Positions 8,512 through 32,165 of a DNA stretch of 60,772 nt are shown here, piece after piece. The first letter of the stretch is position 1. Each line of letters opens with the position of its first letter. The notes below the pieces were generated by a model. The model made no database searches. It was given only the letters and a program-made list of their open reading frames with translations, and was not told the origin of the DNA. The position numbers and the translations under genes are program-made. Source of the stretch: an uncultured Bulleidia sp. (GTDB lineage Bacteria > Bacillota_I > Bacilli_A > Erysipelotrichales > Erysipelotrichaceae); NCBI GenBank assembly GCA_963557245.1, contig CAUWDF010000001.1, positions 1-60,772 of the forward strand. Reading direction: 5' to 3'.

Positions 8512-9414
8512 TTATTCATGAATGGATTCGTCTAAGCATCCAATCAATTCCAAAATACGATTCAGGTCATCGTTATCAGAAAAAGAAATTGTGATTTTTT
8601 TATGAGCAACCTGTACTTTTGTACCAAGTCTTTCCTTCATATGATTTTCAAGATCTACGATAATCGGATCTTTCTTGGGCTTTTCTTTTTCAACCTGTTC
8701 GGCGGAATCCTGTCCATTCAGCTCTTTGACATACTTCTCAACTTCACGAACGGACATCTTCTTCTTTAATACTTCTTCTGCCGCATCATAGATACGGTTC
8801 TCATCTTTTAGACTTAAAAGAGGACGTACATGAGACATCGTCAACTTCTTATCAATAACAAGCTGCTGTACTTCATCTGGAAGTTTCAGTAAACGCAAAA
8901 TATTTGCACAATATTCACGAGACTTACCAACTCTTTCCGCAAGCTTCTCCTGTGTATAATCTAATTTTTGAATCAAAGATTCATAAGCAGCTGCTTCTTC
9001 AATTGGATTCAGATCTTCACGCTGAACATTCTCTAAAATGGAGATTTCCATCATCTGATCTTCCGTGAATTCCACTTCAATCGCAGGTACTTTTTCAAGA
9101 CCTACAATCTTTGCGGCTCTTAAACGTCTTTCACCTGTGATCAGATCATACCCAGAGACACTCTTACGAACAAGAAGTGGAGTAAAGATACCATGTGTGC
9201 GAATTGATTCTGCTAATTCTTCCAATGCTTTCTTATCAAATTCCTTACGTGGCTGATATGGATTTGGACGGATCTCTTCAACTGGAATCGAGATTTCTCT
9301 TCTGCCTGGTGTTGATGTGGAACTGTTCTGAATGTCATCCAAGAATTTTTCTACATTACATTCAAAAATGGAATCGAGTCCTTTATGAAGACCTGCCTGC
9401 TTCTTTCCTGCCAT
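8512..9414 (-). CDS. parB: Chromosome partitioning protein ParB/Spo0J
   Basis: GLHKGLDSIF N-terminal motif, PNPYQPRK, GERRLRA, ENVQREDLNPIEEA. Confidence 0.96.
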   Translation of the reverse strand: MAGKKQAGLHKGLDSIFECNVEKFLDDIQNSSTSTPGRREISIPVEEIRPNPYQPRKEFDKKALEELAESIRTHGIFTPLLVRKSVSGYDLITGERRLRAAKIVGLEKVPAIEVEFTEDQMMEISILENVQREDLNPIEEAAAYESLIQKLDYTQEKLAERVGKSREYCANILRLLKLPDEVQQLVIDKKLTMSHVRPLLSLKDENRIYDAAEEVLKKKMSVREVEKYVKELNGQDSAEQVEKEKPKKDPIIVDLENHMKERLGTKVQVAHKKITISFSDNDDLNRILELIGCLDESIHE

Positions 9415-9417
9415 ACG

Positions 9418-10197
9418 CTACCTCCTTCCTTTCTCATTCTGGAAGATAACTTCCTTTACAAGCTGTGCATATGCTTTCGCTCCTTCCGAACGTGTATCAT
9501 ATTCAAATATTGTTTCTTCTTCCGAAGGCGCCTCGGATAAACGAACGTTACGAGGAATATAGCACTTATATACTTTTTCTTTAAAATATTTACGAACTTC
9601 CTGCTGTACTTCAACCGATAACTTCGTACGTACATCGAACATTGTCAGAAGAACTCCTTCAATGGATAATTCTGGATTAAATAACTTCTGGACAAGACGA
9701 ATTGTACTTAATAACTGTGTCAAACCCTCCAATGCAAAATATTCACACTGAACTGGAATCATGACGGAATCCGCTGCGGTCAGAGCATTTGTATTTAAAA
9801 GACCTAAAGACGGTGGACAGTCAATAATAATGTAATCATAATGATCCTTTACCGGAGCAAGCTTATTCTTCAATAGTCTCTCACGGCCTAACTCATATGA
9901 AGCCATTTCTACATCTGCCCCGGAAAGGTCAACCGTAGAAGGCATGACATCTAATGGTGGCATCTGTAATGTAACTTTAATATCATCAACAGTACTATTA
10001 CTCATCAGAAGATCATATGTACTTTTATCATACCCAACTTTGTTCGCACCGATACCATGTGTTGCATTGCCCTGTGGATCAAAGTCAACAAGCAGTACTT
10101 TCTTGCCTACATAAGCAAGTCCTGCAGATAGATTCATAGCGGTAGTAGTCTTACCGACACCACCTTTTTGGTTTGCAATTGCAATGATCTTTCCCAT
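9418..10197 (-). CDS. parA: ParA/Soj ATPase
   Basis: [25 protein letters not shown]. Confidence 0.97.
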
Positions 10198-10208: not shown

Positions 10209-11015
10209 TCACTTCTTTGGAAAACGGATGATCATGCAGACTTCTGTCGGTGTCTCCTCCGTTTCTGTATTTACTTCTATACCTAATTTTTCAATCATTT
10301 TAATACTCTGCTCAACTGTATTGACCGCAATCCTTGTATTTCTAGAAAAACCTTTCGTCTTCTGATGGGAACGTGGTTTTGGTTCTGCAGAAATTTTTTT
10401 AATATAGGTTTCTGTTTCGCGTACGTTTAGATTTTTCTGAACGATGATGTTATAGACTTTTTTCTTTTGATCATCTGGAATCGATAAAATTGCACGGGCA
10501 TGACGCTCTGTGATTTTTCCTTCCATGACCCCTGCCTGTATCTCATCCGGAAGATTCAGAAGACGAATCTTATTTGCGACCGAAGACTGAGACTTACCAA
10601 TCTTTTTGGCTAATTCTTCTTGCGTCATACCGGATTGGCGGATGATTTGAACATAACTTTTTGCCTCTTCAATAGCCGACAGATCTTTACGCTGAATATT
10701 TTCGACGAGAGCCATCTGAGCTGCTTGATCTTCTGTTGGTGTCAATACATAACATGGAACCTTATCCATTCCAATCTTACAACACGCACGATATCTTCTT
10801 TCTCCAGCAATCAGTTCGTAGTGATCTCCTACCGCACGAACAGTCAAAGGTTGAATTAAACCATTTTCTTGAATAGACTGCGCAAGTTCTTGTAGATCGT
10901 TCTCGTCAAAGATAAGTCTTGGCTGATAACGAGATGGCTTGATCTTTTCTACCGATACAGAAATGACGCGCTCCCGATCCATCTCTGTAAAAATATCAAA
11001 AAATCTGTTTGGCAT
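10209..11015 (-). CDS. noc: Nucleoid occlusion protein Noc (ParB paralogue)
   Basis: ParB domain with amphipathic N-terminus MPNRFFDIF; located between rsmG and soj as in Bacillus. Confidence 0.88.
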   Translation of the reverse strand: MPNRFFDIFTEMDRERVISVSVEKIKPSRYQPRLIFDENDLQELAQSIQENGLIQPLTVRAVGDHYELIAGERRYRACCKIGMDKVPCYVLTPTEDQAAQMALVENIQRKDLSAIEEAKSYVQIIRQSGMTQEELAKKIGKSQSSVANKIRLLNLPDEIQAGVMEGKITERHARAILSIPDDQKKKVYNIIVQKNLNVRETETYIKKISAEPKPRSHQKTKGFSRNTRIAVNTVEQSIKMIEKLGIEVNTETEETPTEVCMIIRFPKK

Positions 11016-20413: not shown

Positions 20414-20442
20414 ATTATACCTGAGTTTCTATTTCTTCTCAA
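20414..20442 (-). promoter_or_regulatory. Sigma-A promoter of ffs
   Basis: TTGAGA-17 bp-TATAAT on the minus strand. Confidence 0.85.
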
Positions 20443-20471
20443 CTCTTATTTCACTTTGATTTTATTTTAAT

Positions 20472-20487
20472 TGTTTCACGTGAAACA
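20472..20487. promoter_or_regulatory. parS centromere-like site
   Basis: Perfect TGTTTCACGTGAAACA; the palindrome extends over 20470..20489. Confidence 0.93.
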
Positions 20488-20488
20488 A

Positions 20489-21286
20489 TCAGCGAATACG
20501 TCTTGGATAACGATGTTCAAATTCACGAACCACTCCCGTAAGATGTGCATCCAAAAAATCAAAAGCACGGTTCTCTAGTTCTTGTGGAATATCTTCATAC
20601 GCCGCCGCAATACCACCTGCAATATTTGCAATCGTATCACTATCCCCTCCAATCGAGATCGCACAACGAATAACCTGTTCGAAGTTCGTTCCTTCTATAA
20701 ATGCTTCTAAAGCTTCTGGAACAGATCCATCACACGAAACATCAAACGTATATGTATGACGAATTTCATCTAATGTAAAGGAAGGATTTAAATCATGCAT
20801 TTTCCAAAATTCACGTAATTCTTCTTTTGAATTGCCATGTCTAGCCAAAAATATTGTTCCTGCTATTGCTTTTGCAGAATTAATTGCATCTGGATGGTTA
20901 TGCGTAACTTCAGTCACTTTTTCAGCCATCCATAATGCATCTTGTAAAGTATCTGCTGCATATCCACAAGGAGATACTCGCATTGCCGCACCATTTCCAT
21001 AACTATTATAAGGCTCATGTTGCGGAGAAAATAACCAATCAAAGAATTTTCCGCCATACCCTGCATTTGGATACATTTTTCCATATTCAACCATAGAATG
21101 TACAGCGTAACGGCCTAAGTCTCCCCCACTCGTTTTATAATGCATTACAGCTTCAGCAATCGCACACGTCATGATGGTATCATCCGTAAAAGTACAGTTA
21201 TCTGACATCATAACAAAGTCCTTCGAACGCTGATTATGAAACTCATAAATAGAACCAGCAATATCACCTATAATTGCACCTAACAT
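20489..21286 (-). CDS. ADP-ribosylglycohydrolase (DraG/ARH family)
   Basis: GAIIGDIAGS, FTDDT, SYGNGAAMR, GGDSDT. Confidence 0.93.
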   Translation of the reverse strand: MLGAIIGDIAGSIYEFHNQRSKDFVMMSDNCTFTDDTIMTCAIAEAVMHYKTSGGDLGRYAVHSMVEYGKMYPNAGYGGKFFDWLFSPQHEPYNSYGNGAAMRVSPCGYAADTLQDALWMAEKVTEVTHNHPDAINSAKAIAGTIFLARHGNSKEELREFWKMHDLNPSFTLDEIRHTYTFDVSCDGSVPEALEAFIEGTNFEQVIRCAISIGGDSDTIANIAGGIAAAYEDIPQELENRAFDFLDAHLTGVVREFEHRYPRRIR

Positions 21287-21343: not shown

Positions 21344-22645
21344 TTAGAACTTCTTTTTCTTTTCTGGAACAGCAATTTTATCCTGACCACCCATATAAGG
21401 TCTTAGTGGTTCTGGAATACGAATCGATCCATCTTCGTTAAGATTATTTTCAATGAAGGAAATTAACATTCTTGGTGGCGCAACAACCGTATTATTCAGT
21501 GTATGAGCAAAATAGTTGCCCTTTTCTCCTTTTACACGAATACCTAATCTTCTTGCCTGTGCATCGCCTAAGTTAGAACAAGAACCAACTTCGAAATACT
21601 TCTTCTGACGTGGAGACCAAGCTTCGACATCGCAGCTCTTTACCTTAAGATCAGCTAAGTCACCAGAACAACATTCAATTGTACGTACTGGAATATCAAG
21701 GGAACGGAAGAAATCTACAGAGTTCTGCCATAACTTGTTGTACCAATCCATAGAATCTTCTGGTTCACATACAACGACCATTTCTTGTTTTTCGAACTGA
21801 TGTACACGGTAAAGACCTCTTTCTTCGATACCATGTGCACCTACTTCTTTACGGAAACATGGAGAGTAAGATGTTAATGCATATGGAAGATCTTCCTTAC
21901 GGAGAATCTGATTAATGAATCGTCCAACCATAGAATGTTCGGATGTTCCAATCAAATAAAGATCTTCTCCTTCAATCTTATACATCATATTCTGCATTTC
22001 TGCGAAAGACATAACACCATTTACAACATCACCATGAATCATGAATGGTGGAATAAAATAAGTAAATCCACGATTAATCATGAAATCTCTTGCATATGCA
22101 AGAATAGAAGAATGTAAACGCGCAATGTTACCCTTTAAATAGTAGAAACCATTACCAGATGTTCTACCTGCAGAATCAATATCAAGACCATCTACCTTTT
22201 CAAGAATATCTGTGTGATAAGGAATTTCAAAATCAGGAACAAATGGTTCACCAAATCTTTCGATTTCTACATTCTCACTGTCATCTTTACCAATTGGAAC
22301 AGATGGATCAATGATATTTGGAATGACATACATTCTCTGTTTAATTTCTTCATTGAGTTCGGCCTCTCTCTTTTCAAGTCTTTCCATCTCATCGCCCATA
22401 GCTTTTACTTCTGCTTTGACTGCTTCCGCTTCTTCCTTCTTGCCATCGCGCATGAGTCCGCCGATTTCTTTCGACTTCTTATTGCGTTCCGCACGTAAAG
22501 CATCGCCCTTCTGCTTTACTTCACGAACTTCCTTATCAAATGCTGCAACTTCATCAACTAAAGGAAGTTTTTCATCCTGAAACTTCTTACGAATGTTTTC
22601 TTTGACAAGTTCTGGATTTTCTCTAATCAGTTTGATATCAATCAT
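21344..22645 (-). CDS. serS: Serine--tRNA ligase
   Basis: N-terminal coiled coil, LIGTSE, FRKEVG, RVHQFEKQE, HTLNNT. Confidence 0.98.
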   Translation of the reverse strand: MIDIKLIRENPELVKENIRKKFQDEKLPLVDEVAAFDKEVREVKQKGDALRAERNKKSKEIGGLMRDGKKEEAEAVKAEVKAMGDEMERLEKREAELNEEIKQRMYVIPNIIDPSVPIGKDDSENVEIERFGEPFVPDFEIPYHTDILEKVDGLDIDSAGRTSGNGFYYLKGNIARLHSSILAYARDFMINRGFTYFIPPFMIHGDVVNGVMSFAEMQNMMYKIEGEDLYLIGTSEHSMVGRFINQILRKEDLPYALTSYSPCFRKEVGAHGIEERGLYRVHQFEKQEMVVVCEPEDSMDWYNKLWQNSVDFFRSLDIPVRTIECCSGDLADLKVKSCDVEAWSPRQKKYFEVGSCSNLGDAQARRLGIRVKGEKGNYFAHTLNNTVVAPPRMLISFIENNLNEDGSIRIPEPLRPYMGGQDKIAVPEKKKKF

Positions 22646-22661: not shown

Positions 22662-22885
22662 ATAAAAAAACATCATCCAACAAAGGGACGATGTCATCGC
22701 GGTGCCACCCTTTTTGTTAAATTGTTTCACGTGAAACAATTTAGCCACTTCATTAACGGATAACGGGCGGTGCCGGAAAGTATTAATTTCACTCACGGGT
22801 GGATTCACAAGACTCGCATCGGTTCACATCCTCCACCGATTTTCTGAGGCTGCGAAATACTTGTTACTAGTCCCCTTCTACGCTT
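22662..22885 (-). ncRNA. T-box riboswitch of serS with Ser (UCC) specifier
   Basis: Minus strand: AGTA box, GAA-UCC-A specifier (22801-22803), CCGTTA, AAGGGTGGCACCGCG T-box, terminator CATCGTCC...GGATGATG-T7. Confidence 0.93.
22723..22738. promoter_or_regulatory. parS site embedded in the serS T-box leader
   Basis: Perfect TGTTTCACGTGAAACA inside a perfect 26-bp palindrome (22718..22743). Confidence 0.92.
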
Positions 22886-22892
22886 TAAAACC

Positions 22893-22921
22893 ATTAAAAC
22901 ATTGCAATTTCAATTTGTCAA
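22893..22921 (-). promoter_or_regulatory. Sigma-A promoter of serS
   Basis: TTGACA-17 bp-TTTAAT with an extended TG. Confidence 0.8.
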
Positions 22922-30139: not shown

Positions 30140-30279
30140 CTTTTATTAATAATATATATTTATTAAGTCTTATTGTTATTAGAACTGTGGGAATTGTGGA
30201 AAACTTTTTAAAAAGCTTTATTTATCCACAAATCCAAGTGCTTTTATGCGTTGAAATGTGGTGGACAAATTTGTGGAAA
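30140..30279. other. oriC unwinding region (dnaA-dnaN intergenic): DnaA boxes, DnaA-trio-like tract, AT-rich segment
   Basis: Perfect TTATCCACA at 30222; tandem boxes at 30186-30203 followed on the minus strand by CTA-ATA-ACA-ATA-AGA and an AT-rich run, as in the Bacillus basal unwinding system. Confidence 0.85.
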
Positions 30280-31650
30280 TCAGTTTGTTAACTGCTTTTC
30301 TAGATCATTGACCGCATTTGCATAAGCTGGATCCTTCTTAATTTGCTTCTCTACTTTCGCGCATGCTGAGATGATTGTAGAGTGGTCACGCCCTCCAAAT
30401 TCATCTCCTATCTTAATATACGGCAAATCGAGTAATTTTCGGCATAAATAAATCGAAATATGTCTCGCATTTGCAATATTCTTTGTTCGAGTTTTTGAAG
30501 TTATTTGTTGTTTTGTCAGTCCATAGTAGTCCGCTACCGTTTTAATAATCTTTTTCGGTGAAAGACCAGTCTTATCGGAAACGACAGCATGACTCTTTAA
30601 GGCATTCATAACAGTCTCAAACTTGATACAACCTCCATCTGGTTGGAATTCGATTGCATAGAACAGGACACGATTCCATGCCCCTTCTAGATCTCGTACA
30701 TTACCAGAGAAGTTAGAGGCGATATAATTCAGACCTTCATCATCGACATCATCAATACCATATCCATTCTGACGTATCTTCATCTGTAAAATAGCAAGTG
30801 AAGTTTCAAATTCAGGTGAGTCAATACCAACGGAAAGCCCACTCGAGAAACGAGAAATCAGACGATCTTCCAGTCCTTTGATTTCGCGTGGTTGCCGATC
30901 CGATGCAATACATACCTGTTTTCGGTTATTGACCAGCTCATTATATATAGTAAAGAAGATCTCATGAGATTTTTCTTTACCAGCAAGGAACTGGATATCA
31001 TCAACTAAGAATAAATCGATATTATACATATATTGTTTAAAGGCTTCGATCTTATTCTCACGTATGGCATTGACAACGGTCTCAACGAATTTTAAGGACT
31101 CAGTATAGTAAACCTTCTTCGTTGGATCGTTTTTTAATACATAATTGGCAATTGCCATTAATAGATGTGTCTTACCCAGGCCAGAATTACCATATATAAA
31201 TAAAGGATTGAAGAATTTACCAGGATTTAGAGCACAAGCAAGAGCGGCAGCTTGGGATTCACGGTTACAGTCGCCTACTACAAAATTATCGAAAGTACGC
31301 TCTTTTTGGATTGGCATAGATTGAAAATCCGTGTCGTTGAGCGGTACAGGTTTAATAGGGACAGTACGATTGGAAAGTTCCGCTGGCTGACATATTTCAA
31401 GCATGAGTGAGTTATTAAGGTCCAGCACGGTTACAAAAGCTTCCGATATCATATCCGACTGCGATTGCAAGATAGATTTCGAAATAATATTTGGCGCAGA
31501 TATAACTGCTTTTTCTTCGGACAATTCATAGATACTACAAGGTTTATAGAAGTTATCTATAATTTCCGGTTCTAGGTTCTTGTTCGTCAGAAGATAATGG
31601 AGAACCTTAGTCCATACTTCTGATAGGTATTGATCTTTAGTAAACGACAT
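30280..31650 (-). CDS. dnaA: Chromosomal replication initiator DnaA
   Basis: NPLFIYGNSGLGKTHL, DDIQF, GGRDHSTI. Confidence 0.99.
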   Translation of the reverse strand: MSFTKDQYLSEVWTKVLHYLLTNKNLEPEIIDNFYKPCSIYELSEEKAVISAPNIISKSILQSQSDMISEAFVTVLDLNNSLMLEICQPAELSNRTVPIKPVPLNDTDFQSMPIQKERTFDNFVVGDCNRESQAAALACALNPGKFFNPLFIYGNSGLGKTHLLMAIANYVLKNDPTKKVYYTESLKFVETVVNAIRENKIEAFKQYMYNIDLFLVDDIQFLAGKEKSHEIFFTIYNELVNNRKQVCIASDRQPREIKGLEDRLISRFSSGLSVGIDSPEFETSLAILQMKIRQNGYGIDDVDDEGLNYIASNFSGNVRDLEGAWNRVLFYAIEFQPDGGCIKFETVMNALKSHAVVSDKTGLSPKKIIKTVADYYGLTKQQITSKTRTKNIANARHISIYLCRKLLDLPYIKIGDEFGGRDHSTIISACAKVEKQIKKDPAYANAVNDLEKQLTN

Positions 31651-31719
31651 GAATATTTACCTCTAATTTTTTTATATTTGCATGGTATATTGTAGGGTTC
31701 ATTTAGTGTAAAATCTACA

Positions 31720-32165
31720 TAAAAATTGTTGATAACTTTTTTCTCCACACATCCACAATTTACAATATATAGCATGAATATGCTGATTATTTGTGTTTTC
31801 CACACTTTTCCACATCTTTAGTATAGTGGAAAAAATGTGGATTAGTTTTACACATTGGGGAAAAGTTGTGATTTTGTTGAAAAAGTCATAAATGTAAGAA
31901 TGTAATTAACAGTTATAAACAATCGCAAAAAGGCTTTATTAAGCAATTATGCGAGTTTCCCACAGTTTTCCACAGTTGTGGAAAACTTGTTTGTAAACAC
32001 TGTGGTTTTCATGTTGATAAGTCGGTGGTTTTCATAATTTTTCCAACAGTCTGAAATTCACGATTCTCAACAGTACTTTTAAAAAATACTATAAATTAGC
32101 GGTTTTTTGAATAAATGTGGAAAACTTTAGGGATTTTTACTTATTTTAGTGATTGTTGATAGTTT
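31720..32165. other. oriC DnaA-box array upstream of dnaA
   Basis: TTTTCCACA/TGTGGAAAA at 31796, 31806, 31966, 31977 and 32116; TGTGGATTA at 31836; TTTCCCACA at 31956; several TGTTGATAA. Confidence 0.88.

Follow-up and report, generated by a model that had tools for sequence, protein, structure and literature searches.

A consensus parS palindrome at the position of stem III in the serS T-box leader of an uncultured Bulleidia sp. and its relatives

The serS leader of an uncultured Bulleidia sp., a gut bacterium, is a T-box riboswitch whose stem III is topped by a perfect parS sequence, and the reading that we favour, with a probability of roughly three in four, is that this consensus parS on a standard serine T-box has two uses that are largely independent of each other, one in DNA, where ParB would load on it, and one in RNA, where it caps a helix that the switch requires. 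The window, by which we mean the whole stretch of 60,772 nt that was analysed (contig CAUWDF010000001.1), also carries a second parS and the genes for ParA, ParB and Noc (Table 1). An earlier note, made from the window's letters alone, had reported a perfect parS within a perfect 26-bp palindrome, and both its coordinates and its sequence were confirmed. The 16-mer agrees at every position with TGTTNCACGTGAAACA, which we take to be the chromosomal parS consensus of ParABS-SMC systems. A perfect parS is expected 0.0006 times by chance in this 1.68 Mb genome and is seen twice, both times in the window; the same two sites are the only ones in the genome even when two mismatches are allowed, a count that rests on an assembly 97.6% complete in 141 contigs. 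Shuffled versions of the window held on average 0.20 parS matches, against four strand-matches observed, and four were reached in 1 of 100 shuffles.

Table 1. Features of the window around the two parS sites, the serS leader and the origin region (a point marks features given without strand)
Feature	Position	Strand	Basis or remark
parS site 1, consensus 16-mer TGTTTCACGTGAAACA	22723-22738	.	0 mismatches; upper 6 bp and loop of stem III
Perfect 26-bp palindrome (16-mer plus 5 bp per side)	22718-22743	.	sequence
Stem III hairpin	22716-22745	-	Rfam and folding; 11 contiguous pairs, ACGU loop
serS T-box leader, transcriptional class	22681-22889	-	RF00230, model positions 1-219
Candidate sigma-A promoter of serS leader	22893-22921	-	TTGACA, 17 nt, TTTAAT; TG precedes -10
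Specifier codon UCC (Ser)	22801-22803	-	Rfam alignment
Stem IIA/B element CCGUUA	22761-22766	-	Rfam alignment
Purine string AAGUG (RRRxG) 5' of stem III	22746-22750	-	sequence compared with motif in PMC7583486
AA partner of RRRxG-stem III-AA motif	22715-22714	-	sequence compared with motif in PMC7583486
Antiterminator with T-box bulge UGGCACC	22684-22709	-	Rfam and folding
Intrinsic terminator hairpin and U tract	22663-22695	-	folding
serS, seryl-tRNA synthetase	21344-22645	-	TIGR00414, above cut-off
parS site 2	20472-20487	.	just 3' of ADP-ribosylglycohydrolase-like gene stop, upstream of SRP RNA
parB (spo0J)	8512-9414	-	positions 173/179/184/201 = R-I-K-S
parA (soj)-like ATPase	9418-10197	-	best family NF041546, below its cut-off
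noc	10209-11015	-	TIGR04285, above cut-off
dnaA (30280-31650) and DnaA-box-like cluster, putative oriC region	30195-32124	.

The leader scored 110.7 bits against RF00230 in a cmscan of the window, above the gathering score of 93, and the palindrome aligned to the stem III columns of the model, between stem IIA/B and the T-box. This is where the earlier note had placed it, between a stem II CCGTTA element and the T-box; the element itself was rightly recognized, but the start given there takes in a second copy (22759-22754), whereas Rfam assigns the copy at 22766-22761. The gene downstream is serS, as had been proposed, and the specifier codon agrees both with this gene and with a tRNA-Ser(GGA) gene found in the genome. 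The RRRxG-stem III-AA discriminator is present as AAGUG, the hairpin and AA, and each of the 11 pairs of the hairpin has a probability of 0.87-1.00; a weak G-C pair at its end, beyond a C-A mismatch, has one of 0.12. When the 3' domain of the leader was folded, a shortened RNA gave the antiterminator and the full-length RNA the terminator, with stem III in both; both structures fold and share sequence, and are mutually exclusive in silico. Folding of the whole leader gave a z of -1.9, which is not significant, with the domains mixed up. The candidate promoter comes from reading of the sequence and is absent from the list of the consensus scanner, the RNA data found for it were at contig level, and no strain variants were found inside the span of the T-box model. 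From the sequence of these elements we infer that serS would be controlled by tRNA-Ser through its leader. The genome holds 14 other RF00230-type T-boxes, all of them without parS because there are only two parS sites to be had.

Judged from its sequence, its position and its co-occurrence with ParB, the 16-mer is likely to be a ParB site in DNA. At 59 distinct stem III sites the entropy was at most 0.21 bit over the 16 positions, the ACGU loop included, and 0.8-1.95 bit in the flanks, although these sites were chosen by two or fewer mismatches to the 16-mer (14 of them by an exact-pattern search), which inflates the invariance. Selection by similarity makes lineages free of parS at this position the more telling comparison, and there stem III sequences and lengths are unrelated. 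A 16-mer that is nearly invariant even at loop bases that cannot pair fits reading by a protein. Among 60 genomes of the host class the motif was found in none of the 12 without a ParB match and in 39 of the 48 with one, and among the Erysipelotrichaceae genomes checked ParB was present in 80/80 and parS in 79/80, mostly as two sites irrespective of the slot that they occupy. The motif outlasts loss of the T-box (in L152 it lies at -29 and in L357 at -47), and it remains beside gyrA in loci that serS has left (L347, L352-L354).

The flanks of the 16-mer behave differently. Pairing above that of shuffles extended over positions 9-15 at the stem III sites and only over positions 9-11 at 115 control parS drawn from the same loci; as positions 9-11 pair in ordinary parS too, this part of the extension is not evidence for an RNA role, and the lengthening to 26 bp proves selection on RNA only in part, control parS also extending by 1-3 bp. 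The sense strand folded better at 52 stem III sites and worse at 5, the corresponding figures for the controls being 46 and 55, and mean fold energies were -11.0 versus -7.6 kcal/mol. G-U and A-C combinations occurred at 29:8 in stem III flanks and at 51:51 in controls, an excess of G-U that could come partly from the G-rich purine string. Related genomes are not independent and p-values overstate the case, so that, given this kinship and the G-rich 5' flank, the tests of an RNA role are supportive and not exact. Flanks that vary while keeping their sense-strand pairing fit an RNA helix. A hairpin of unrelated sequence occupies the stem III position in 46 of 52 parS-free serS leaders (L197, which has no stem IIA/B motif, is excluded from this count), while in L271 and L275 stem III consists of the 16-mer plus a base or two. 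Stem III has been described in a review as indispensable for the discriminator though variable in stem and loop (PMC7583486), and an earlier study, which suggested a role as pause site, found that tRNA still bound fairly well in vitro once it was deleted (PMC6197855). The proposal that one sequence serves as DNA site and RNA hairpin is thus backed on both sides by comparison, through the invariant 16-mer, the sense-biased flank covariation and the co-occurrence with ParB, with the role of ParB itself standing as a prediction.

Both parS sites lie close to the putative origin, at about 7.5 kb (site 1) and 9.8 kb (site 2) from dnaA. The order on the minus strand is dnaA, dnaN, recF, gyrB, gyrA, serS, an ADP-ribosylglycohydrolase-like gene, SRP RNA, tadA and dnaX, with noc, parA and parB further on (dnaN, recF, gyrB, gyrA and dnaX were identified from the sequence by inspection and not by profile scan). 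Eight of the 11 DnaA-box-like matches of the window fall within 2 kb at dnaA, the window total being not above chance, and smc was found in the genome. The ADP-ribosylglycohydrolase-like gene (20489-21286) separates serS from parS site 2 in the window; in most genomes of the genus the second parS directly follows the serS stop, with no intervening gene. Site 2 is also about 29 bp upstream of a promoter-like site, TTGAGA-17-TATAAT, that would serve SRP RNA and tadA (20416-20487). In the alignment of ParB the specificity residue R173 is kept and position 201 is S in place of the usual G; this position is G in 29/30 ParBs of other families, and S in 3/5 of the same genus and 0/30 of other families. 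Gly201 of ParB has been described as invariant, and a deep mutational scan found S201 to be permitted for parS binding and frequent among variants of dual specificity (PMC7383237). By that scan, R173 together with S201 would be compatible with parS binding, and the ParB of the window, with S201 and Lys at 184, may have dual specificity for parS and the Noc site.

The earlier note had called for a survey of relatives' serS leaders for a retained parS. Of 21 serS loci in the genus 20 have upstream DNA, and 19 of these 20 carry a stem III parS, perfect in 17; in the sister family it was present at 1 of 9 loci. The pattern of parS, gap and T-box was found in 55/151 Erysipelotrichaceae genomes, representing 26/74 genera, with none for the reversed-pattern control, and in 41/401 genomes of the host class, in 10 families; a search at the level of the phylum returned the class result again (41/401). 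A scan of GTDB gave at least 120 loci, and in 88 of the 120 listed serS follows, the carriers among these including Holdemania filiformis, H. massiliensis, Erysipelothrix tonsillarum and E. inopinata. Of the 32 listed matches without serS downstream, 30 appear to be ordinary parS with a chance motif alongside and were set aside, and the other two are on Erysipelotrichaceae contigs that end soon after the T-box. RF00230 scored above its gathering threshold at 16 of 17 loci from diverse relatives, the exception being L152, which has no T-box. The arrangement was not found in about 300 Bacilli genomes at up to two mismatches, and the idea that it is a general feature of Bacilli was rejected, the 38 of 301 genomes with a match showing no T-box-like string when judged by eye. 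Beyond these groups, four loci of distant bacteria (L036, L039, L091, L105) have a parS just 5' of a start that reads approximately M-E-T-x-F-D-V-I-V-x-G, and the gene that follows looks, by eye, like mnmG/gidA; and a genome labelled 'uncultured Thermococci archaeon' (G665, locus L113) contains 479 exact degenerate-parS matches in 2.5 Mb, with none for the reversed control, those listed all being TGTTACACGTGTAACA.

Among serS-anchored loci (114 with upstream DNA, a set in which the genus itself is over-sampled and from which L020 was dropped for want of upstream DNA) the T-box leaders carry a stem III parS in 46/100 and none in 54/100, L152 having been reclassified. A parS just 3' of serS is present at 66/114 of these loci, and in 36 of the 46 stem III cases serS lies between the two parS. 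Elsewhere the site is upstream of the serS promoter (L155, L221, L235, L274-L278), and in several families with the canonical SerS type it lies within the serS coding sequence, where it is read as NVPRET or DVPRGT. This coding-sequence parS occurs at about +317 in L151, L152, L266-L269 and L273 (7 of 12 loci of the canonical type); it is present also in L344-L346 and L348, with a version of two mismatches in L272. Whichever slots serve, most genomes hold about two parS. Two compact T-boxes (L099:1501-1555 and L129) have a parS in the stem II region and not in stem III, and apparent remnants of parS are seen in the stem II region of the related leaders L166 and L172. The T-box with parS is separated from serS in L204 (G076:C4:66716-67273) by a short additional reading frame, which by its position would fall under serine T-box control.

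The arrangement precedes two types of SerS that are only 30-37% identical. The SerS of the window shares 30-37% identity with its counterparts in other families of the class and in two genera of the same family, a distance suggesting that the serS gene was replaced behind a retained leader with T-box and parS. On an unrooted FastTree phylogeny of SerS (L228, with a short SerS, left out) presence of the stem III parS in 113 T-box leaders required 11 changes, compared with 37.9 on average, and never fewer than 31, in shuffles. Both SerS types include carriers that branch deeply, a clade of 40 rows with good support has no stem III parS save one degenerate copy, and likely remnants are seen in L217 (core lost, arms kept) and L167 (two mismatches). 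The simplest reading, to be taken with the limits that the tree has no root and that SerS possibly moved between lineages, would be that the overlap is old in the class and has been lost repeatedly, parS itself being retained in most cases at a different place.

Our working hypothesis is one of dual use. At the level of RNA, stem III, going by the role that the literature gives it, must exist and offer its flanking purines to the antiterminator, and because the sequence of its stem and loop is free the palindrome fits there at no cost. At the level of DNA, ParB would load at parS and recruit SMC near oriC, and about two parS per genome would be maintained in the gyrA-serS-scr/tadA interval close to oriC, with stem III as one of several slots, the others being before the serS promoter, within the reading frame of serS and just past its stop codon. 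For stem III any hairpin will do, whatever its sequence; parS requires a palindrome near oriC, and a single 16-mer could serve both. Such a use of slots agrees with selection acting on how many parS a genome has and where they lie, stem III being a free slot that lasts.

A different and rather unlikely possibility is that the two roles are coupled, ParB at parS slowing RNA polymerase while stems I and II await the tRNA, lengthening the decision window of the T-box and shifting serS read-through with the state of ParB and CTP. In the glyQS T-box of B. subtilis polymerase is reported to pause at stem III, and the time open for the decision is about 0.5-1 s (PMC6197855); ParB represses comCDE in Streptococcus pneumoniae (PMC4488948) and two parS-adjacent genes in Pseudomonas aeruginosa (PMC7022226). 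The stem III slot is retained in 10 families, in two genomes (G035 and G217) it is the sole exact parS match, and retention of one slot across SerS proteins of 30-37% identity might exceed what a neutral slot would lead one to expect, leaving room for coupling. At its fullest, and with the same low probability, ParB clamps at the stem III parS would set the dwell of RNA polymerase and the output of seryl-tRNA synthetase would follow the state of the partition complex and of CTP, a link dating from early in the history of the class. The site is not an operator, being about 150 nt downstream of the likely promoter, and the same T-box runs without a stem III parS in 54 of the 100 serS-anchored leaders. 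In B. subtilis and S. pneumoniae most neighbours of parS showed no change when ParB was lost (PMC4488948, PMC7022226), and a ParB condensate in vitro left polymerase processivity unchanged and speed only slightly lower (PMC10786196). With so many leaders free of parS and published effects of ParB that are mostly small, the suggestion of the earlier note that ParB loading or spreading modulates serS read-through finds no support, and the patchy distribution argues that regulation of serS by ParB is not required.

Less probable still is a benefit in the reverse direction, in which leader transcription or serS read-through, for example during serine starvation, tunes ParB spreading or SMC loading. 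With serS between both parS in 36/46 stem III cases, read-through crosses the segment between them; smc is present, and convergent transcription has been described as a hindrance to SMC. The parS, however, is upstream of the terminator and is crossed by terminated and read-through transcripts alike, so that polymerase passes over it in either state. Whether parS is transcribed is thus beyond the control of the switch, which acts only on polymerase going on through serS, in the segment that separates the sites; and pairs of parS stay put when serS leaves the locus. The corresponding proposal of the earlier note, that leader transcription modulates ParB/SMC loading, is likewise unsupported. That the 16-mer is an RNA hairpin only, or serves a different protein, for example Noc, with an incidental match to parS, is very improbable: it does fold well as stem III, noc is in the genome and in two relatives the central variant (CCCGTG or CACGGG) shifts toward what is presumably the core of the Noc site, but the loop bases are near-invariant here though free in stem III of other lineages, the identical 16-mer stands at a second site that is not a T-box, the motif tracks the presence of ParB, and just 0.0006 sites per genome would be expected by chance. 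The frequency of S201 among dual-specificity ParB variants (PMC7383237) is a further point on the side of Noc.

Apart from this overlap, the leader resembles transcriptional T-boxes of RF00230 such as those of B. subtilis glyQS and tyrS, with the same stem I, a Ser specifier, stem IIA/B, the RRRxG-stem III-AA motif, bulge, antiterminator and terminator; its stem II is short, and its stem III, usually a variable element, here carries a fixed 16-nt site of the DNA-protein type in 10 families of one class. The site, likewise, resembles other chromosomal parS of ParABS-SMC systems in its perfect consensus, its position near the origin, its low copy number and its occurrence in a genome with parA, parB and smc, and differs in lying inside a structured regulatory RNA, a location for parS that the papers searched do not describe. 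In S. pneumoniae parS(-1.6 deg) lies within the coding gene SPD_2058 (PMC4488948), where one sequence is likewise ParB site and second code, and relatives of the Bulleidia sp. also have a parS that codes for part of SerS; in the leader, by contrast, the palindrome itself builds an RNA helix, and this helix, not a string of codons, is the second code. The parS near S. pneumoniae comCDE and P. aeruginosa PA0011/PA0013 are similarly close to regulated transcripts, but there the effects were measured and attributed to promoter access, whereas the serS site lies in an attenuator and is known from sequence. Our search of the literature found no report of a parS in a T-box or serS leader, though the tables of a 2007 parS survey and the TBDB flat file might list one; 'parS' does not occur in the main text of the TBDB preprint, nor 'riboswitch', 'serS' or 'leader' in a ParB review, and no parS study of Erysipelotrichaceae or related families was found. 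Both components are ordinary members of known families, and within the literature searched the new part is parS as a riboswitch helix.

The arrangement is of interest as one palindrome under two separable constraints, DNA reading by a protein and RNA pairing, that is deeply conserved and for which natural intermediates of loss exist. It also shows where the centromere is likely to lie in Erysipelotrichaceae and related families. As the T-box converts sub-second shifts in polymerase timing into an on/off output, and simple mutations would separate both roles, these leaders provide a natural and sensitive test of whether ParB at parS disturbs elongating RNA polymerase. Were coupling to prove true, a bacterial centromere would be wired into a riboswitch.
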